The position numbers were made by a program, and so were the translations under genes. A stretch of 34,014 nt of DNA from the NCBI GenBank assembly GCA_030616835.1, contig JAUWWP010000001.1, positions 1 to 34,014 on the forward strand, read 5' to 3'. The notes under the pieces are model-generated. The model saw only the letters and a list, made by a program, of their open reading frames with translations, searched no databases and was not told where the DNA came from. Each line of letters starts with the position of its first letter. Within the stretch, counting starts at the first letter, position 1. Positions 23,630 to 33,327 of this stretch are shown piece after piece. The DNA is from Deltaproteobacteria bacterium (lineage in GTDB: Bacteria > Desulfobacterota > G020345765).

Positions 23630-24085
23630 TTAGAAAAGATCGTCCAGAATCAAAATCTTTAGTGCCTCAACCTTTTCAAACCTTCTATCGTTGGTAACGA
23701 AGCCCTTTGCCTTAACTACTATTGCGGTGGCCACCTGGATAGCATCAGGGATTCTCAGGTTATATCTTGCCCTTATCACAGCAGTGGATTCAGCTACCTC
23801 TTCGTCCAAAGACCTTATGATCAGATTTGGAAAATTCTTGAGCAAAAACTTATAGTCCTTTATTAAATCCTCTCTTCTTTCCCTTTTGGGTTTTATCAAG
23901 AGTTCTATTAAGGTCAAAATCGAAGTTACCCCTTTAAACTTATTCTGTTCCACCAAGTATAGAAGAGGTTTGGTCAAAGGGAGATATTTTTTATTTCCTT
24001 CGATGTGATAAATAAATATCATTGAATCTATGCCTACAATAGCTCCCTCGAACTCTTTTAATAGAATCCGCTCTATTCCTTCCAT
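23630..24085 (-). CDS. vapC: PIN-domain toxin VapC (type II TA)
   Basis: 151 aa with the conserved acidic positions IVGIDSMIF, TLIELL, IPDAIQVATA and FVTNDRRF. Overlaps the upstream antitoxin gene by 13 nt. Confidence 0.85.
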   Translation of the reverse strand: MEGIERILLKEFEGAIVGIDSMIFIYHIEGNKKYLPLTKPLLYLVEQNKFKGVTSILTLIELLIKPKRERREDLIKDYKFLLKNFPNLIIRSLDEEVAESTAVIRARYNLRIPDAIQVATAIVVKAKGFVTNDRRFEKVEALKILILDDLF

Positions 24086-25071: not shown

Positions 25072-26061
25072 CTACTTGCCGGTCCGCCTAAGGGAGCGAG
25101 GAATACGATCCAGCTTGAAGACGGTGATGAACTCACTGTTCAAGCTAATCCACAGCTTCTCGGCGATGATGGCGTTGGTCAGTGATTCCCGGAAGCCCAT
25201 CCAGTCCTCGAACAGCTCAGGGTCTTTACCGACCATAATGAAATCCGGCGCCTCAACCGTACCGCTCTGGATCCTTAGCTTCTGATCGTCAATAAGAATG
25301 GCGAAGGGGCCACCGGCGGTCTTGACCTGGATCGAGCGCCGCCATCCCTTCAGGTCCTTTTGCGCCCGCTCGCTGGTTGCGACCTTCCCGGCCAGTTCGC
25401 TAAGCCGCTCCAGAACCCGCTCTAGGGCTTTTTTGCCCTCGGGCGTAGGCCCCGGAACCGAGGGCTCTTCCGGGCTTGTCCAATCCAGCTCGCTTTCCTG
25501 CAGCCCTTTTTTCTTTTGCTGCTCCTTAGAAAGCTCACTTAAGGGAACGGCGAAGATATCGGTGGGATTGCCCAGACGCTCGTCTCGGAAGACGATCTTC
25601 ACTTCCATCCCTTTCTTAAAGACTCGGGGCGTCAAGATCCCTTTAGTGGTATAGACATGGATAGGCAGGGCGGTATCTGCACCCTTTAGCAGTACCCGCC
25701 CCCGCCCGAAGGGTACTTGATGCTGGAACAGGGAGTGGGCAAAGTAGGTGATGGGCGGGGTTGAGTTCATTACGCCCGTGTCGGGCAGCTCGATAGGCTC
25801 CATCTGTTCAAACTCGCACTCAGGGCAATAGAGTTCAAATAGCGGAACCCGAACCACGCCACACTTGGTGCACCGGACCCCCAGGATCACCTTTCGCTCC
25901 TTGAGGGCGAGGAAAAAAGGAGATTGCTCTCCTTTGGTCCGCTTATAGAAGCTGAACATGGCCTCGTTGGTCTGGAGGAAGCGCTCGCCGTCCACCTCCA
26001 GAATCTCGGAGCCCACATCCGGGATTAGCTCTAGGGGGATAACCTTTTGTCGAGTAGGCAT
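25072..26061 (-). CDS. DUF35 (zinc-ribbon + OB-fold) protein fused to an SCP2-like sterol-carrier domain
   Basis: RCTKCGVVRVPLFELYCPEC zinc ribbon, then an OB-fold region. The C-terminal ~100 aa (FAILIDDQKLRIQSGTVEAPDFIMVGKDPELFEDWMGF...) is SCP2-like. Start set at MPTRQKV (GGAGG 7-8 nt upstream); the listed ORF extends to 26094. Confidence 0.7.
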   Translation of the reverse strand: MPTRQKVIPLELIPDVGSEILEVDGERFLQTNEAMFSFYKRTKGEQSPFFLALKERKVILGVRCTKCGVVRVPLFELYCPECEFEQMEPIELPDTGVMNSTPPITYFAHSLFQHQVPFGRGRVLLKGADTALPIHVYTTKGILTPRVFKKGMEVKIVFRDERLGNPTDIFAVPLSELSKEQQKKKGLQESELDWTSPEEPSVPGPTPEGKKALERVLERLSELAGKVATSERAQKDLKGWRRSIQVKTAGGPFAILIDDQKLRIQSGTVEAPDFIMVGKDPELFEDWMGFRESLTNAIIAEKLWISLNSEFITVFKLDRIPRSLRRTGK

Positions 26062-26080
26062 CTTCAATAACCTCCTTTCC

Positions 26081-26154
26081 CCCCCGATGTCCATCGGGGG
26101 GTTAACGCCACTAAATCCCCCCCCTTTGAAAAAGGGGGGTCAGGGGGGATTTTA
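26081..26154. repeat. two GC-rich palindromes in the thiolase-DUF35 intercistronic spacer
   Basis: CCCCCCCGATGTCCATCGGGGGG (26081-26103) is the reverse-orientation copy of the 17948-17965 hairpin. AAATCCCCCCCCTTTGAAAAAGGGGGGTCAGGGGGGATTT (26115-26154) is homologous to 21981-22026. Confidence 0.75.
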
Positions 26155-27420: not shown

Positions 27421-27432
27421 CTGAAATGATAA

Positions 27433-27457
27433 AATCCCAAATCCCAACTCCCAAATC
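27433..27457. repeat. heptanucleotide tandem repeat (AATCCCA-like)
   Basis: AATCCCA AATCCCA ACTCCCA AATC read directly. Confidence 0.7.
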
Positions 27458-27486
27458 AATTAAATCACAATTAATAAAGTGGACCC

Positions 27487-27523
27487 AATTCGTATAATTC
27501 GTGAAATTCGTGGTTCAAATCCC
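27487..27523 (+). repeat. nonamer-triplet element, copy 2
   Basis: AATTCGTATA ATTCGTGAA ATTCGTGGT TCAAATCCC. Confidence 0.7.
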
Positions 27524-27550
27524 AAATCCCCTATAGATTTTAGATTTCAA

Positions 27551-27585
27551 AATCTACAATCTATAATCTACAATCTGCAATCTAT
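27551..27585. repeat. heptanucleotide tandem repeat (AATCTRY) x5
   Basis: AATCTAC AATCTAT AATCTAC AATCTGC AATCTAT, preceded by inverted AGATTTT AGATTTC units. Confidence 0.8.
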
Positions 27586-27633
27586 CATCTTTGCATTTTT
27601 AATGGTATATTCAACTGTGCCGGGAGAAGTAAG

Positions 27634-28620
27634 ATGGCGAAGGTATACGAAAAGATCGTAACTCATGGGGATTTTGATGGGGTGATTAGCGCGGCAATCT
27701 GCTCTTATACCCTGAGGGTGGATAAAGTAATGTTTGCCGGCCCCTCAACCATTACCAAATCCCTCATTTCTATATCTGATAGGGATATTGTTTGTGACCT
27801 TCCTTACCCTCTGGAGTGTGGGCTATGGTTTGACCATCACGAGGGTAATATTCTCGATTTAGAGTATCGTCGAATCAATCCCGAGGAAATTCCCGGTAGC
27901 TTCTCCCTGAAAAATAGCTGTGCTCGGGTTGTTTATCAGTACTTCGCCAAATCGTGTGAACTACCTTCCCGTTTTCTCGAAGCAGTAAAGGAGGCTGATA
28001 GGATTGACAGCTTCAATTATCAGAGCATCGAGGAGTGGCGAAAAGAGACGCCGGGGAAGATAATTGATTGTTCGATTAAGGCCCAGCAAGGCCCGCCCCG
28101 GGACCGGGATAAGTATCTGCGGCAGTTGGTAGAGTGGATCAGGGATGATGCTTTAGCGAAGGTTGCCACCTTTCCCCCAGTTGTGGATAGCTTTCAGGCA
28201 TATAAGGCCGACGAAGCGGGAATGCTCAAGATGATCCAAAAAAGCTCTTACTTTATCCCGGCAGACAGAAGGCAAGAGATAGTTATAATTGACCTGACCA
28301 AATACCGGCATCAGGCAGGGTTAATTAAACACTTTGCCTTCCTCTTGAATCCCAAGACCCTGGCAGTGCTGGAGATCAAGAGCATTTTTGATATGGGGGT
28401 AAAAACCAATAATCTTTCCTTTTCCATGGCGTTAAGCCTTAATCTGGCTAATAAGGAGTACCATAAAGATATTGGGGAGATAATGCGCAGACTCAATATT
28501 GGCGACGGGCACAGAGGAGCAGCAGCAGGTACAGTAAGCTGCCAGTCAAAAGCAGAGATGCTGAAAGAAAAGGAAAGAATTTTAAATAAGATCTTCCAGT
28601 TGTGGACTGAGCAGGCATAA
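27634..28620 (+). CDS. DHH/DHHA1-family phosphoesterase (NrnA-like)
   Basis: 328 aa. Motif I VTHGDFDGVISAAI, motif III WFDHHEGN, motif IV-like ADRIDSF and DHHA1 GDGHRGAAAGT. Confidence 0.75.
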   Translation: MAKVYEKIVTHGDFDGVISAAICSYTLRVDKVMFAGPSTITKSLISISDRDIVCDLPYPLECGLWFDHHEGNILDLEYRRINPEEIPGSFSLKNSCARVVYQYFAKSCELPSRFLEAVKEADRIDSFNYQSIEEWRKETPGKIIDCSIKAQQGPPRDRDKYLRQLVEWIRDDALAKVATFPPVVDSFQAYKADEAGMLKMIQKSSYFIPADRRQEIVIIDLTKYRHQAGLIKHFAFLLNPKTLAVLEIKSIFDMGVKTNNLSFSMALSLNLANKEYHKDIGEIMRRLNIGDGHRGAAAGTVSCQSKAEMLKEKERILNKIFQLWTEQA

Positions 28621-28746
28621 ACCAAATCCCAATCCGCCTTCGTCCACCTTTGGTGGACTATGGCGGACAAGTCCGCCGTAGCTTTCAGCCTTCGTAGCCC
28701 AGCCACCTTCGCCGGGCCGAATCCCAAATCCCAAAAGGGAAAATTG

Positions 28747-28782
28747 TTTCGTGAAATTCGTGAAATTCGTGGTTCAAATTCC
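28747..28782 (+). repeat. nonamer-triplet element, copy 3
   Basis: TTTCGTGAA ATTCGTGAA ATTCGTGGT TCAAATTCC. Confidence 0.7.
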
Positions 28783-28812
28783 AATAATCAATCAATAGGA
28801 GTCATTTTTTGG

Positions 28813-28881: not shown

Positions 28882-29682
28882 ATGAATAGAAATAATACAT
28901 TAAAAAGATTAGGGCCTAAAGAGACAGAGGTTATTGCTCGGTTGAGCTATGAAAAGAAGATAATAGTGACGGCCGACAATCTTGATTCCTTATTTGATTT
29001 TTCTCCCGAAGACAGACGGCAGATAGTTTTTCGTTTAAAAAAGAAAAGTATATTGACTCCGATAAAACGAGGTGTTTATCTATTTTCTCCCCTGGAAGCA
29101 GGGCCCGGAGGGACGGGCATTGATGAATTGCTTGTCCCCCCCCTTTATTTCCCTCAAAATAACTACTATGTCGGATATTCAACAATGTTTAACTATTACG
29201 GATTTACCGAGCAGCTTTTTCAAACAGTGTATGTTTTAAATACTTCTTTTCGTAAAGAAAAAAATATATGTGGCATCGCCTTTAAATTCTTAAAGGTTTC
29301 AGAAAATCGTATGTATGGGCTGGAAAAGATAAATGTTAAAGATAAGGAGGTTATAGTTAGCTCTAAAGAGCGGACACTAATAGATCTTTTGTATTTCAAT
29401 AAACCTGTCGGAGGGATAAGCTCAGCAGTTCAGATTTTTAAAAAATTCATCGAAGAAAAACGATGCAATATAAAAAAGGTTGTGGAATATGCCGCCCGTT
29501 TTCCAAATGTAACGACGAGAAAGCGCATCGGTGTAATATTAGAGGAGTCAGGTATTTCAGATTCAAAGCTGAAACCACTCATAAAAAGTGTAGAAAAAAC
29601 AGCTATTAGTTCACTCAATAGGACACGCAGAGGAAAGCTTAACAAGAAATGGAGAGTCATAATTAATGATTCACAAGAATAA
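28882..29682 (+). CDS. AbiEi / COG5340-like transcriptional regulator (type IV TA antitoxin family)
   Basis: 266 aa. N-terminal wHTH-like region ending in KRGVYLFSP, then YYVGYSTMFNYYGFTEQLFQTVYV, KERTLIDLL and C-terminal KKWRVIIN, as in AbiEi-type proteins. Confidence 0.65.
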   Translation: MNRNNTLKRLGPKETEVIARLSYEKKIIVTADNLDSLFDFSPEDRRQIVFRLKKKSILTPIKRGVYLFSPLEAGPGGTGIDELLVPPLYFPQNNYYVGYSTMFNYYGFTEQLFQTVYVLNTSFRKEKNICGIAFKFLKVSENRMYGLEKINVKDKEVIVSSKERTLIDLLYFNKPVGGISSAVQIFKKFIEEKRCNIKKVVEYAARFPNVTTRKRIGVILEESGISDSKLKPLIKSVEKTAISSLNRTRRGKLNKKWRVIINDSQE

Positions 29683-29953
29683 AGAAGAATTTTATTTTGT
29701 TTTACGGCATGGATTTAATCTTGCTGATAAGAAAATAATGGACCTTTTAAAAAGGAAGCTTGAGGAAGATAACAAAGATACTGATCTTGATAAATATCAC
29801 ATCAATTTAGGAAGAAAAGATAAGGAAATCCGTGATATGAAATCACGGATTAAAGAGGAGCTTTTTGAGGTATTGACTCCTAATGAAAGAAAAAATTTTG
29901 ATATTGATCAAGCACTAAAAAGGATTAACGAAGCTATGGGTCGAAGGGAATAG
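29666..29953 (+). CDS. hypothetical 95-aa charged protein in the position normally held by AbiEii
   Basis: Overlaps the AbiEi-like gene by 17 nt; GGAGAG lies 9 nt upstream. The first residues MIHKNKEEF resemble AbiEii N-termini, but no nucleotidyltransferase core is present. Confidence 0.45.
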   Translation: MIHKNKEEFYFVLRHGFNLADKKIMDLLKRKLEEDNKDTDLDKYHINLGRKDKEIRDMKSRIKEELFEVLTPNERKNFDIDQALKRINEAMGRRE

Positions 29954-30149: not shown

Positions 30150-30184
30150 AATCTAAAATCTGTAATCTGAAATCTACAATCTAA
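30150..30184. repeat. heptanucleotide tandem repeat (AATCTNN) x5
   Basis: AATCTAA AATCTGT AATCTGA AATCTAC AATCTAA. Confidence 0.8.
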
Positions 30185-30306: not shown

Positions 30307-30364
30307 CGGATTTAGTAGCGGAAGTTAGATGAAAACAGCGCAACAAGTAAACAACGTGGTCTCC
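30307..30364 (+). repeat. 58-nt direct repeat, left copy (partner 32514-32571)
   Basis: An ungapped hand alignment gives 42 of 58 identical positions, with a 25-nt core AAACAGCGCAACAAGTAAACAACGT carrying 3 mismatches. Confidence 0.6.
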
Positions 30365-30424
30365 TGATTCCCCCTTATATCTTATGTAAGTTTCCCAACT
30401 ACTAACTTGACTAAATTATATGAC

Positions 30425-30455
30425 TTGACAAACGGGTCAAATTGTTTTATATAAT
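30425..30455 (+). promoter_or_regulatory. promoter abutting the start codon (leaderless-type arrangement), with TTGAC repeats
   Basis: TTGACA (30425-30430), then 17 nt to TATATA or 19 nt to TATAAT (30450-30455). The ATG is at 30461 with no Shine-Dalgarno sequence. TTGAC occurs at 30407 and 30425, and inverted as GTCAA at 30436. Confidence 0.45.
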
Positions 30456-30460
30456 CAGGC

Positions 30461-31546
30461 ATGAAGGTTCCATCCGAAAAGCAGGCCATACCTCAGATCG
30501 TTAAGGCTCTATCAGACCTAGTCAACGTTAGCCATAATGATGTACGAGTGATACAGGAGCCATGTGCACCGGATGCTGACGCCGTAATGGAGGCAGGTCC
30601 GTTCACCTTCGTGGTTGAGTGGAAAGGCTCAAGTAGCGCGGGTTCGGTCGCGATTGCTGCTGACCAAGCTCGGAGGTACGCACGCCTATTTGGCCAGCAC
30701 GCCATCCCCTTGGTTGCGGTTCCGTTCATGGGTAAAGTTGGGCGTGAGCGGTGTGCTGAGGCCGTGGTTGCGTGGATGGACCTTTCGGGTAATGCCAGGA
30801 TTATTGCCCCTGGCCTCCGCATAATTATGGAAGGGCAACCTAATCGATTCAAGAGCAGGGGACGTCCATCCACGGCCTTCGCACCGAAGAGTTCCCGGAT
30901 CGCACGTTGGTTACTCATGCATCCCGACCAACCTATTACTCAGAGAGAGATAGCACGGGCCACGGATATGGATGAAGGCTTTACCAGCCGTATAGTTGCT
31001 AAACTTGAGGAAGATAACCTCATCTTCCGCGATAATGAGGGAGCAATCAAACCCCGCGATCCAGACCTGCTGCTCGATGCTTGGCGAGAGGGGTATGACT
31101 TTTTCAAGCATCACATCATTCGAGGTCACATTCCCGCAAGATCTGGTGATGCTCTTCTGCATCAGGTCGCGGATGCCCTGGTTGACTCATCTGTGGCTTA
31201 TGCCGCTACCGGCCTGGCGGCAGCATGGCTTTGGAACCATTTCGCGGGTTTCCGGATAGTTACCATGTACCTGCGCGAAGATCCGTCGCCGCAACTGCTT
31301 GAGAGTATCTCTTTTCGTGAGGACAACCGTGGCGCGAATGTCTGGCTCGTAGTCCCAAACGACATGGGCGTATTCCACGAGGCAAAAAAACGTGAGGGAG
31401 TCTATTGCGTGCATCCTGTCCAGGCCTACCTCGATCTTAAAAACCACCCTGAGAGGTCTACTGAGGCAGCGGAGAAACTACGAGCCGAGCACTTGAGTTG
31501 GAGGAAAGATGGCAGAGCCGACAACCGCTGCCGGGTACAGGAGTAA
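30461..31546 (+). CDS. AbiEi-like wHTH regulator with an N-terminal PD-(D/E)xK-like domain
   Basis: 361 aa. N-terminal PDADAVMEAGPFTFVVEWK is a D...ExK pattern. Central ITQREIARATDMDEGFTSRIVAKLEEDNLIF is wHTH-like. The C-terminal half (LLLDAWREGY...YAATGLAAAW...VHPVQAYLDL) resembles AbiEi C-domains. Confidence 0.5.
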   Translation: MKVPSEKQAIPQIVKALSDLVNVSHNDVRVIQEPCAPDADAVMEAGPFTFVVEWKGSSSAGSVAIAADQARRYARLFGQHAIPLVAVPFMGKVGRERCAEAVVAWMDLSGNARIIAPGLRIIMEGQPNRFKSRGRPSTAFAPKSSRIARWLLMHPDQPITQREIARATDMDEGFTSRIVAKLEEDNLIFRDNEGAIKPRDPDLLLDAWREGYDFFKHHIIRGHIPARSGDALLHQVADALVDSSVAYAATGLAAAWLWNHFAGFRIVTMYLREDPSPQLLESISFREDNRGANVWLVVPNDMGVFHEAKKREGVYCVHPVQAYLDLKNHPERSTEAAEKLRAEHLSWRKDGRADNRCRVQE

Positions 31547-32360
31547 ACAGGTAGCTATTGTGAGGTCCACTTGCCTCTATATCGCTACCAAGCTTGGAGA
31601 CATCATGGATGAACTCGTCGTGGTTGGCGGCCTGGTTCCTTCGCTGCTTATAAATCAGGACTCCCTCCCAGAAGGCGCCGATGCCCACGTGGGGACGATG
31701 GACCTGGACGTCGGCCTTACCCTGGCCCTTCTGGAAAATAGAGGTTACAAAACGCTGACCGAACGGTTGCGGGTATCGGGCTTCTCTCAAGACGCCAACG
31801 AGGAAGGCAACCCGACGCGCCAACGCTGGAAGATCGAGCGGGAGGAGAAGATTACGGTAGATTTCCTCATTCAGCCGAGCTTGCCTGATGACCGAGGTGG
31901 CAGGTTGCGAAACATTGAACCAGATTTCGCCGCGGTGATTACGCCCGGACTCCATTTGGCGTTTGAGGATCGCGAGCGCATTTCACTCTCAGGCGAAACG
32001 ATCATGGGTGAACAGGCAACGCGTAAGGTCTGGGTTTGCGGACCCGGCGCATATGTTGTGTTGAAGGCCCTAGCCTTCGATATGCGTGGCGAGAACAAGG
32101 ACGCTTATGACCTGTTCTACCTTATCCAGAATTTGGATGGGGGCGTCAAGGAAATCGCTTCACGGCTCAAACTGTTCATCGATGATTCTTTTACTCAGGA
32201 AGCATTGAAAGTACTACGCCGTGATTTCCTTGACAATGATGGTGTCGGGCCTCGTCGAGTTGCGGAATTTAAAAAAGGTGGACACGACGAAGACATTCAA
32301 GCCGATGTTGTCGGCTATGTTAAGCTCCTACTTGAACTGTGCGGATCGATCCACACCTAA
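31509..32360 (+). CDS. AbiEii-like nucleotidyltransferase (type IV TA / abortive-infection toxin family)
   Basis: 283 aa. GGAGGA lies 4 nt upstream; 38-nt overlap with the upstream gene. NTase pattern VVVGGLVPSLL...GTMDLDVGL and the downstream KALAFDMRGENKDAYDLFYLI. Confidence 0.6.
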   Translation: MAEPTTAAGYRSKQVAIVRSTCLYIATKLGDIMDELVVVGGLVPSLLINQDSLPEGADAHVGTMDLDVGLTLALLENRGYKTLTERLRVSGFSQDANEEGNPTRQRWKIEREEKITVDFLIQPSLPDDRGGRLRNIEPDFAAVITPGLHLAFEDRERISLSGETIMGEQATRKVWVCGPGAYVVLKALAFDMRGENKDAYDLFYLIQNLDGGVKEIASRLKLFIDDSFTQEALKVLRRDFLDNDGVGPRRVAEFKKGGHDEDIQADVVGYVKLLLELCGSIHT

Positions 32361-32513: not shown

Positions 32514-32571
32514 CGGATTTAAAGGCTAAATTTAAATAGAAACAACGCAGCAAGTAAACAGCGTCCCCACC
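32514..32571 (+). repeat. 58-nt direct repeat, right copy
   Basis: See 30307-30364. It lies 28 nt upstream of the MNT gene. Confidence 0.6.
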
Positions 32572-32598: not shown

Positions 32599-32892
32599 AT
32601 GAAAACAAAAGAGGAAATTTTGAAGATACTTAAGGATGAATTTCCCTATCTCAAAGAGAAATATGGGGTAAAAAAGATCGGGGTATTTGGCTCATATTCA
32701 CGAGCAGAACAGGATATTGAAAGTGATGTAGATATTCTCATTCAGTTTGAAAAACCAATAGGATTTTTTAAATTTATTGCTATTGAAGATTATCTCAGTG
32801 AGAGACTTAAGGCAAAAGTGGAACTGGTCACTGAAGATGCTTTAAAACCTATCATAAAACCCTATGTGATGGAGGATGTTGTTTATGTCTAA
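32599..32892 (+). CDS. mntA: MNT-type minimal nucleotidyltransferase antitoxin (type VII TA)
   Basis: 97 aa with GVFGSYSRAEQDIESDVDILIQF (GS-x10-DxD). GGGAGG ribosome-binding site. The stop overlaps the next ATG (ATGTCTAA). Confidence 0.85.
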   Translation: MKTKEEILKILKDEFPYLKEKYGVKKIGVFGSYSRAEQDIESDVDILIQFEKPIGFFKFIAIEDYLSERLKAKVELVTEDALKPIIKPYVMEDVVYV

Positions 32893-33096
32893 GGCATTTA
32901 GAGATGTCGAGCTCTTCATAAATGATATTTTGGAAGCTATTGAGAAGATAGAAATGTACACCTCTGTGATAAGCTATGAAGAATTTATGGAAATGTGTAA
33001 ACAAAGGATGCGGTTTTAAGGAGCTTAGAGATTATAGGAGAAGCGGTTAAAAATATTCCGAAGGGATTCGGGGTCACATCTTCATATATCATTTAA
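32885..33096 (+). pseudogene. hepT: HepT (DUF86, HEPN) toxin remnant, frameshifted and 3'-truncated
   Basis: Frame 1 (MSKAFRDVELFINDILEAIEKIE...) stops at 33019. A shifted frame continues as KDAVLRSLEIIGEAVKNIPKGF and stops at 33096, before any R-x4-6-H HEPN motif. Confidence 0.7.
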
Positions 33097-33193
33097 AAGA
33101 AAGTAGAGGGGTTATCCATTAAAGGGCACCTGTCAAGATAAAAAAGATAAAAAGAAAGGCTCCCTTCGACTTCGCTTCCTTCGGCTTCGCTCA

Positions 33194-33229
33194 GGGCAGG
33201 CAGGGCAGGCAGGGCAGGCAGGGCAGGCA
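33194..33229 (+). repeat. 9-bp tandem repeat (GGGCAGGCA) x4, G-quadruplex-capable
   Basis: Four exact units read directly. GGG tracts at 33194, 33203, 33212 and 33221 are separated by 6-nt loops. Confidence 0.85.
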
Positions 33230-33327
33230 GGCCCGCAGTCTTGAGAGAATAAAATGAAGTTGGGAACGACTCCTATTCCCCTGCATTTTCAAAGAAATTA
33301 TATCTATAATATAAGAGGGAGATAGTT

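Follow-up and report, generated by a model that had tools for sequence, protein, structure and literature searches.

Pairs of COG4861 and DUF1814 proteins were described in 2014 as AbiE-related, and the score given there for their association in STRING is 99% (Dy et al. 2014, PMC3985639). In Mycobacterium tuberculosis the example is MenA2-MenT2 (Rv0837c-Rv0836c), in which the antitoxin is far larger than the toxin (PMC7450476). The Pfam family PF09952 (AbiEi_2) corresponds to COG4861 (PMC7251935), and for AbiEi proteins of COG5340, autorepression through inverted repeats is established (PMC3985639). Here we analyze two overlapping genes in a window of 34,014 nucleotides, the whole stretch of DNA that was studied (positions 1 to 34,014 of contig JAUWWP010000001.1, Deltaproteobacteria bacterium, assembly GCA_030616835.1). 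Gene 1 codes for a three-domain regulator with a winged helix-turn-helix (wHTH), and gene 2 for a nucleotidyltransferase (NTase). We propose that the pair is probably an autorepressed toxin-antitoxin (TA) or abortive-infection module of the AbiE/MenAT type, with a COG4861/AbiEi_2-type regulator before a DUF1814 NTase. The original prediction, made from the letters of the window, had seen a special variant with an extra domain and possibly an undescribed defence architecture. Neither idea held: the locus is a new but ordinary member of a known, widespread and uncharacterised class, the pair of families has been in the literature since 2014 (PMC3985639), and RefSeq already names the plasmid members AbiEi and AbiEii.

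Judged by their relatives, both open reading frames (ORFs) are real genes, because databases contain more than 2779 homologues of gene 1 and 3739 of gene 2, almost always full length; the best 120 are 60-90% identical. The 38-nt overlap of the two genes and the GGAGGA before the second, both reported in the original prediction, were confirmed from the sequence, and this Shine-Dalgarno element is spaced 3 nt from the ATG of gene 2 (Table 1). An overlap of this length is peculiar to the window copy: relatives overlap or abut, by a few to about 30 nt, with 11 nt in the closest relative and 4 nt in two plasmid copies. Gene 1 of the window has a C-terminal extension of about 10 aa (ADNRCRVQE; 31517-31546) beyond the end of most relatives, and the overlap is therefore unusually long. 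Antisense ORFs at 30493-30918 and 31458-31955 were set aside as shadows of the G+C-rich coding sequence, since the genes on the plus strand have thousands of full-length homologues.

By its motifs and its modelled fold, gene 2 is a DUF1814/MenT/AbiEii-type NTase. In an alignment of 38 relatives (mean column identity 77%), G40-G41, H60, G62, T63, D65, D67, D118, K186, R193 and K197-D198-A-Y-D201 are invariant. They comprise motifs I and II of pol-beta NTases (G40-G41 and T63-M-D65-L-D67), a third carboxylate (D118), and motifs III (K186-A-L-A-F-x-x-R193) and IV (K197-D198-A-Y-D201) of DUF1814, the last two defined by Dy et al. 2014 as KLxAaxxR and +DxxD (PMC3985639). The ten motif residues G40, G41, T63, D65, D67, D118, K186, R193, D198 and D201 are kept in all intact copies among the 80 genomes described below. 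The AlphaFold model of gene 2 has a predicted local distance difference test (pLDDT) of 81 and a predicted template-modelling score (pTM) of 0.84; its best PDB fold by Foldseek is MenT3/TglT (7c46, 8xhr; probability 0.98-0.99, template-modelling score ~0.44), ranked before Cid1 and then pol lambda. Weak Pfam matches recur in the family, to PF08843 (AbiEii) in 34 of 38 members and to PF12281 (NTP_transf_8) in 14 of 38, and all 38 weakly match the PADLOC model PDC-M21B. The earlier assignment of gene 2 to the AbiEii-type NTases, including the quoted motifs GG, DLD, KALAF..R and KDAYD, thus stands on the invariant residues and the MenT3 fold match.

T63 is situated two residues N-terminal to the catalytic D65 and is invariant in the alignment. 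The equivalent position is the auto-phosphorylated site in MenT1 (T39, with D41) and MenT3 (S78), and it is reported to be strictly Ser/Thr across the DUF1814 subfamilies examined, written there as DUF2253 and DUF4849 (PMC11375011). By analogy, T63 is a candidate phospho-acceptor that may be phosphorylated.

The AlphaFold2 (AF2) model of gene 1 (pLDDT 84) has three domains and a low-confidence linker at residues 133-140, where pLDDT falls below 50. The middle domain is a wHTH, to which Pfam MarR_2 matches above its cut-off at aa 145-192 (E = 2.4e-8), the sole Pfam family seen in gene 1 of the window; PDB MarR proteins resemble it by sequence and by fold. When profiles of gene 1, of gene 2 and of the N-terminal domain were run against PDB sequences, they matched MarR wHTH proteins only, with no NTase match for gene 2 and no nuclease match for the N-terminal domain. 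In the C-terminal alpha/beta domain, residues ~197-340 score 26-36 bits against PF09952 (cut-off 21) in 32 of 38 close homologues; the family is undetected in the window protein itself, to which the matching homologues are 60-86% identical. The wHTH and the AbiEi-like C-terminal half of the original prediction are borne out by these MarR_2 and AbiEi_2 matches. Models of the COG5340 type (Pfam AbiEi_1, AbiEi_3 and AbiEi_4 and the PADLOC AbiEi models) matched neither gene 1 nor 43 relatives, and the same PADLOC models did match a canonical AbiEi gene upstream in the window (28882-29682) at 1e-46, which served as a positive control; an NCBIfam scan gave nothing useful for the pair. The idea that the C-terminal domain is a degenerate paralogue of the partner NTase, which arose from a Foldseek match of gene 1 to the NTase TM1012 at rank 40, was not supported, as HHalign gave a probability of 1.4% for gene 1 against gene 2. 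In one relative (P0254, 497 aa), TPR repeats take the position of the AbiEi_2 domain behind the N-terminal domain and the wHTH; these first two domains therefore act together as a unit whose C-terminal module can be exchanged. The linker between them carries an RGRP core that is well kept in 185 sequences (G in 181, R in 180, P in 171), and it may act as an AT-hook.

The pair is found far beyond the window. When one genome per GTDB species was scanned, 145 carried gene 1, and the best 80 of these 145 loci were fetched; they come from Myxococcota, other Deltaproteobacteria, Acidobacteriota, Planctomycetota, Verrucomicrobiota, Binatia, Eisenbacteria, Gemmatimonadota, Chloroflexota, Actinomycetota and others. 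In about 70 of the 80, the NTase gene is directly downstream of gene 1, with a gap or overlap within +/-40 nt, and on this evidence the two genes are strictly linked across phyla. About 10 of the 80 genomes have an intact gene 1 with a truncated, frameshifted or absent NTase gene and resemble orphan regulators (L001, L008, L020, L026, L028, L029, L039, L045, L048 and L065); for L045, the fetched stretch stops inside the NTase gene, so that its gene is cut off there and is not lost. Searched with the N-terminal domain only, 1.84 billion representative proteins gave 449 clusters at 50% identity, nearly all of about 350 aa with the domain at the N-terminus. The three-domain gene 1, which had been taken for a variant with an extra domain, is by this count the norm of a huge family.

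Homologues at 24-31% identity are carried by 55 plasmids of cultured Proteobacteria, and in RefSeq many of them are annotated as 'type IV toxin-antitoxin system AbiEi family antitoxin' followed by 'nucleotidyl transferase AbiEii/AbiGii toxin family protein'. In three plasmid loci (L081-L083) the regulator gene is directly upstream of the NTase gene; the AbiEii Pfam cut-off is passed by two of the three plasmid partners tested, and the third, from Phaeobacter, is just below it at 21.0 bits. Gene 1 of the window aligns over its full length with a Sphingomonas plasmid protein named 'AbiEi family antitoxin' in RefSeq (E = 1e-33). The profile of the N-terminal domain matches the Mesorhizobium and Phaeobacter plasmid proteins with HHalign probabilities of 99.2% and 95.3%, and both the D...ExK and the D-L-x-G-(N/S) motifs align in the two proteins.

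The promoter region of gene 1 is conserved as well. We anchored 78 homologous loci on the gene 1 start codon, 71 of which entered a consensus alignment that reads CTTGACTAAAt-N6-aCTTGACa-N5-gTCAAgtt-N4-TATTTAGTCAAg.ATG. The distal box A, TTGACTAAA with at most one mismatch, recurs in 51 of the 78 loci, which come from many phyla, at -54 +/-1 relative to the start codon. The inner palindrome, CTTGAC-N6-GTCAAG (18 bp) in the family, covers the -35 element, and the proximal box C, TTTAGTCAA, is at -11 +/-1 in 56 of the 78 loci. Box C is the reverse complement of box A; the window copy differs from ATTTAGTCAAG at 3 of 11 positions. The nested inverted repeats thus laid out form a putative operator that overlaps the -35 element, the -10 element and the start codon. 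Because the ATG comes only 7-8 nt past the -10 element and gene 1 has no Shine-Dalgarno sequence, its mRNA is predicted to be leaderless. A promoter and operator conserved across phyla and abutting the start codon is, as read from these alignments, a new finding that predicts autorepression. The distant plasmid homologues have different repeats of their own, which also abut the start codon. A reading of the boxes as terminal repeats of a mobile element was rejected, as they cluster at -54 and -11 only (occasionally at -80 to -150), with no consistent copy downstream of gene 2. In the literature searched, the operator, the RGRP linker and the N-terminal domain discussed next are undescribed.

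A restriction-endonuclease (REase) fold had been predicted for about 130 aa at the start of gene 1, and for the first ~125 aa this part of the original prediction is well supported by the model. The AF2 order of secondary structures is a-b-b-b-a-b-a-b-b-b, with core elements H6-21, E28-32, E41-45, E48-54, H60-77 and E81-87. The motif D40-A-V...F-V-V-E53-W-K55, which had been quoted, is present, with D40 where strand 2 begins and E53/K55 where strand 3 ends, the placement that the PD-(D/E)xK fold requires. Foldseek matches the domain to NucS (2vld), EndoMS (5gke) and Hjc (1gef) in the PDB, with probability 0.99-1.0 over 91-119 columns, and to five phage 'restriction endonucleases' in the viral library BFVD, again at 0.99-1.0; the multidomain query model keeps the E-values modest (7e-3 to 7.5e-4). 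Scattered sub-threshold Pfam matches among 45 members repeatedly fall in the PD-(D/E)xK clan (HSDR_N three times, PDDEXK_9 twice, HSDR_N_2, NERD and Hjc once each). Considering that the two structure searches and the recurring clan matches agree, we regard the REase fold of the modelled domain as well supported, although no Pfam family covers it.

Does the domain cut DNA? It was proposed that the regulator also senses or cleaves nucleic acid. This reading makes the PD-(D/E)xK domain an active nuclease or nucleic-acid sensor, so that the regulator and antitoxin would detect or cut foreign or branched DNA in a dual-function defence system. The fold matches to NucS/EndoMS, Hjc and phage restriction endonucleases speak for it, as do the intact residues E6, D40, E53 and K55 of the window copy, a QxxxY-like motif (Q69...Y73) after the ExK strand, and defence-type genes (N-6 DNA methylase, ATPase, SbcCD-like exonuclease) that adjoin some plasmid copies. 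The D-ExK triad is intact in the window and in 175 of 262 sequences (67%); the remaining 87 (33%) are without D-(E/D)-K, so that the catalytic residues are conserved here and in two thirds of the homologues and degenerate in the rest. Among 185 full-length relatives, D40 is kept in 169, E53 in 145 and K55 in 151, and strictly invariant residues are found elsewhere in the domain: D107 and N111 in 185 of 185, and G110, C98, W105 and P88 in 181-184.

The pattern of the losses is informative. For 43 of the 87 degenerate sequences, the triad is intact in the nearest neighbour, as determined from the other two domains, in some cases at 94-95% identity. Substitutions include E53 to A, Q, V or T and K55 to R, T or L; variants such as DAK, DQT, DET, DVK, AHR and FFK in place of DEK are found beside NTase genes with all ten motif residues, and degenerate copies in species-representative genomes retain the C-W-D-G-N patch. 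These distributions indicate that the losses are recurrent, independent and recent, with the system retained. Because the triad has been lost repeatedly and recently in otherwise intact operons, we conclude from the alignments that nuclease catalysis is dispensable, and the domain is probably not a working nuclease. We place its conserved function in the invariant patch, possibly as dimerisation, DNA or partner binding, or sensing. With the triad substituted in one third of the relatives, many independent times and beside a perfectly conserved NTase, and with none of the nuclease families matching significantly by sequence, the reading as an active nuclease or nucleic-acid sensor is unlikely, and cleavage of nucleic acid is an improbable candidate for the essential job of the domain.

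We propose the following mechanism for an autorepressed AbiE/MenAT-type module. The gene 1 protein, probably as a dimer, would bind the CTTGAC half-sites through its wHTH, while the RGRP AT-hook-like linker would read the TAAAT tract that adjoins the CTTGAC half-site; bound in this way, the protein would repress its own leaderless operon. The AbiEi_2 C-terminal domain would neutralise the NTase, likely by provoking auto-phosphorylation of T63, as MenA1, MenA3 and AbiEi do, or alternatively by sequestering the NTase. When the regulator is lost or titrated, as in phage infection or after loss of the element, the free NTase would add nucleotides to tRNA 3' ends and translation would stop. The REase-fold domain would be mainly non-catalytic in this scheme, serving dimerisation, DNA binding or signal sensing through the C98/W105/D107/G110/N111 patch and not through the triad. 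It is also possible, if unlikely, that this domain is the trigger, which through the invariant patch would sense a DNA structure or a phage product and switch the regulator from repression and restraint to release of the NTase; metal or DNA chemistry would then contribute in the two thirds of copies with an intact triad. If true, the domain would be a built-in infection sensor that the two-domain AbiEi lacks, and this would explain the strong conservation of the branch (50-70% identity) across phyla.

Several points weigh against the proposed module. The main uncertainty is that no member of the AbiEi_2/COG4861-DUF1814 branch has demonstrated toxicity; MenT2, the sole tested NTase linked to COG4861, was non-toxic in M. 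smegmatis or E. coli (PMC7450476). Gene 2 of the window reaches PF08843 with E = 0.031 and 14.7 bits only (cut-off 22.5), PADLOC AbiEii matches none of the 38 family members at E <= 1e-3, and the window proteins have no AbiEi_2, NCBIfam or PADLOC AbiE match. We infer the roles of the AT-hook, which has the motif as its basis, of the leaderless start, of dimerisation and of T63 phosphorylation. In addition, the intact triad in two thirds of the family, including the window copy, is above the expectation for a purely structural relic, and the triad may have some catalytic or metal-binding role.

Considering MenT2 in particular, which lacks toxicity (PMC7450476) and detectable activity (PMC11375011), the locus might not be a TA system; gene 2 would then be a non-toxic modifying enzyme that, for example, nucleotidylates RNA, a small molecule or a protein, under control of a signal-responsive three-domain repressor. 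The closest relatives of the pair fit such a role, as they sit amid ordinary metabolic genes (hydrogenase and GST genes), with no mobile-element or defence genes nearby. The DUF1814 toxin motifs are nevertheless invariant, all four of them, as is the phospho-acceptor Thr; the operon has the TA style, is carried on plasmids and is patchy across phyla, and the window pair is in a cluster of TA genes (AbiEi, MNT/HEPN and PIN), all of which makes a non-toxic enzyme quite improbable. Type VII MntA NTases neutralise toxins by nucleotidylation, and by this precedent gene 1, with its nuclease fold, could be the toxin and gene 2 its antitoxin as in HEPN/MNT systems; such a reversal is very improbable, as the nuclease triad is dispensable, gene 2 has toxin-type DUF1814 C-terminal motifs and resembles MenT3 and not MntA, and gene 1 is encoded first with an antitoxin-type AbiEi_2 domain and a DNA-binding domain.

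The AbiE/MenAT-type module may also move between genomes. Nucleotide homology to the closest relatives, at 80% identity, has sharp ends at 30407 and 32346, and by these ends the block defines the transferable unit. The G+C content is 0.52-0.57 over the pair versus 0.33-0.43 in the flanks at 28.8-30.2 kb and 32.4-33.0 kb, so that the contrast noticed earlier is real, although values of 0.34-0.59 alternate as a mosaic along the whole window and the pair does not stand alone, with 22-23 kb and 25-27 kb equally rich. Because of the sharp homology ends and a G+C content unlike the flanks, horizontal acquisition of the pair is plausible, as had been suggested. Taken as a whole, we think it fairly probable that the locus is a horizontally mobile, self-contained module of ~1.95 kb (30407-32360).

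The pair is in a low-G+C stretch with other TA-type genes (Table 1). The canonical AbiEi gene directly upstream looks like an orphan antitoxin or the remains of a decayed AbiE system; a 95-aa ORF without a family match overlaps its 3' end by 17 nt (region 28882-29953). Downstream (region 32599-33019), a 47-aa ORF overlaps the end of the MNT-type NTase gene, where a HEPN/DUF86 partner is expected, and is probably a truncated form of that partner, assigned by its position. The PIN-domain gene is possibly another toxin gene of this TA-rich neighbourhood.

Repeats are found around the pair as well. A 51-nt imperfect direct repeat (30307-30357 and 32514-32564, 76% identity) brackets the module about 50 nt outside the conserved ends, and its core AACARCGCARCAAGTAAACARCGT has no third copy in the window. 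This direct repeat may be a scar left by an insertion or an intergenic repeat of the host. An integron or att-site was considered and rejected, since the repeats fall beyond the conserved module and none of the 87 related loci has them, with no adjacent integrase gene. Tandem heptamer repeats of the AAATCCC, AATCTAC and ATTCGTG types are found at 27431-27590, 28623-28784 and 30150-30183, and an ORF of 328 aa (27634-28620) that has no Pfam match lies between the two copies of a 37-nt direct repeat (27489-27525 and 28748-28784, 92% identity). The low-G+C island appears to consist of cassettes bounded by repeats. At 33192-33236, a 9-nt unit, CAGGGCAGG, is repeated in tandem four to five times. 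An Rfam scan found no match around the locus. ARAGORN called a permuted 'tmRNA*' at 25393-25995, about 5 kb upstream and within a G+C-rich ORF on the minus strand (25072-26094), which is probably a false positive; the tRNA and tmRNA scan gave nothing beyond this doubtful call.

Table 1. Coordinates of the gene pair, its domains, its control elements and the neighbouring TA-type genes in the window
Feature	Position	Strand	Description
Gene 1	30461..31546	+	361 aa; three-domain regulator, putative antitoxin, AbiEi_2/COG4861 class
Gene 2	31509..32360	+	283 aa; DUF1814/MenT/AbiEii-like nucleotidyltransferase, putative toxin
REase-fold domain of gene 1	30461..30835	+	aa 1-125; E6, D40, E53-x-K55, patch C98/W105/D107/G110/N111
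Linker of gene 1	30836..30895	+	AT-hook-like core R133-G134-R135-P136; low-confidence segment, conserved RGRP
MarR-type wHTH of gene 1	30896..31054	+	aa ~146-198; Pfam MarR_2
AbiEi_2-type C-terminal domain of gene 1	31061..31492	+	aa ~201-344; alpha/beta; presumed antitoxin part
Distal operator box A, CTTGACTAAAT	30406..30416	+	nucleotide homology to closest relatives begins at 30407
Inner palindrome CTTGAC-N6-GTCAA(a)	30424..30441	+	consensus aCTTGACa-N5-gTCAAg in 71 aligned loci
-35 hexamer TTGACA	30425-30430	+	inside inner palindrome
-10 element TATATA (family TATTTA) overlapping box C	30448..30459 (TATATA 30448-30453)	+	17 nt past -35
Shine-Dalgarno GGAGGA of gene 2	31500-31505	+	within 3' end of gene 1; read directly from sequence
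Canonical AbiEi gene	28882-29682		266 aa; no AbiEii partner; PADLOC AbiEi 1e-46; Pfam AbiEi_1
MNT-type NTase	32599-32892		97 aa; NTP_transf_2; PADLOC PDC-S09; weak MntA match
PIN-domain gene	23630-24085	-	151 aa

With thousands of homologues, more than 10 phyla and plasmid carriers, the AbiEi_2/COG4861-DUF1814 branch is among the most widespread AbiE/MenAT-type modules, and the PADLOC AbiE models miss the subfamily of the window. The features uncovered here are class-wide: an eroding nuclease triad, an invariant patch, an AT-hook-like linker and a conserved leaderless operator. The domain map, the operator layout with its unusually good conservation and the candidate phospho-acceptor T63 provide a basis for asking how this branch is regulated and whether it serves as a TA or a defence system.

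Compared with known systems, each part of the locus has a recognisable counterpart. The N-terminal domain shares with NucS/EndoMS and Hjc the core fold and a D...ExK on strands 2 and 3; it is unlike them in that there is no sequence-level relationship and that selection strictly keeps the C98/W105/D107/G110/N111 patch and not the triad. With MarR repressors, gene 1 shares the MarR_2 wHTH and a palindromic operator, and differs by its flanking REase and AbiEi_2 domains, while the likeness to AT-hook DNA binders is the RGRP core in the low-confidence linker, an assignment by motif only. AbiE of Streptococcus agalactiae and Lactococcus, MenA3-MenT3 and MenA4-MenT4 are, like the window pair, bicistronic, with a wHTH regulator or antitoxin and a DUF1814 NTase; they also share with it motifs I-IV, inverted promoter repeats and a Ser/Thr placed two positions ahead of the first catalytic Asp. 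Canonical AbiEi, unlike gene 1, is a two-domain COG5340 protein of ~200 aa that binds 23-bp repeats as a monomer and has neither the REase-fold nor the AbiEi_2 domain; in gene 2, 23 residues separate G41 from D65, a wider spacing than that of AbiEii. The closest counterparts are the COG4861-DUF1814 pairs such as MenA2-MenT2, in which, as in the window, a large wHTH regulator with an AbiEi_2 C-terminus is directly upstream of the NTase; Rv0837c is set beside gene 1 by description only. The subfamily of the window is 24-31% identical to the plasmid members of this class, and its NTase is below the Pfam and PADLOC cut-offs. Even at this distance, the plasmid members annotated as AbiEi/AbiEii have all three domains of gene 1 in common with the window.

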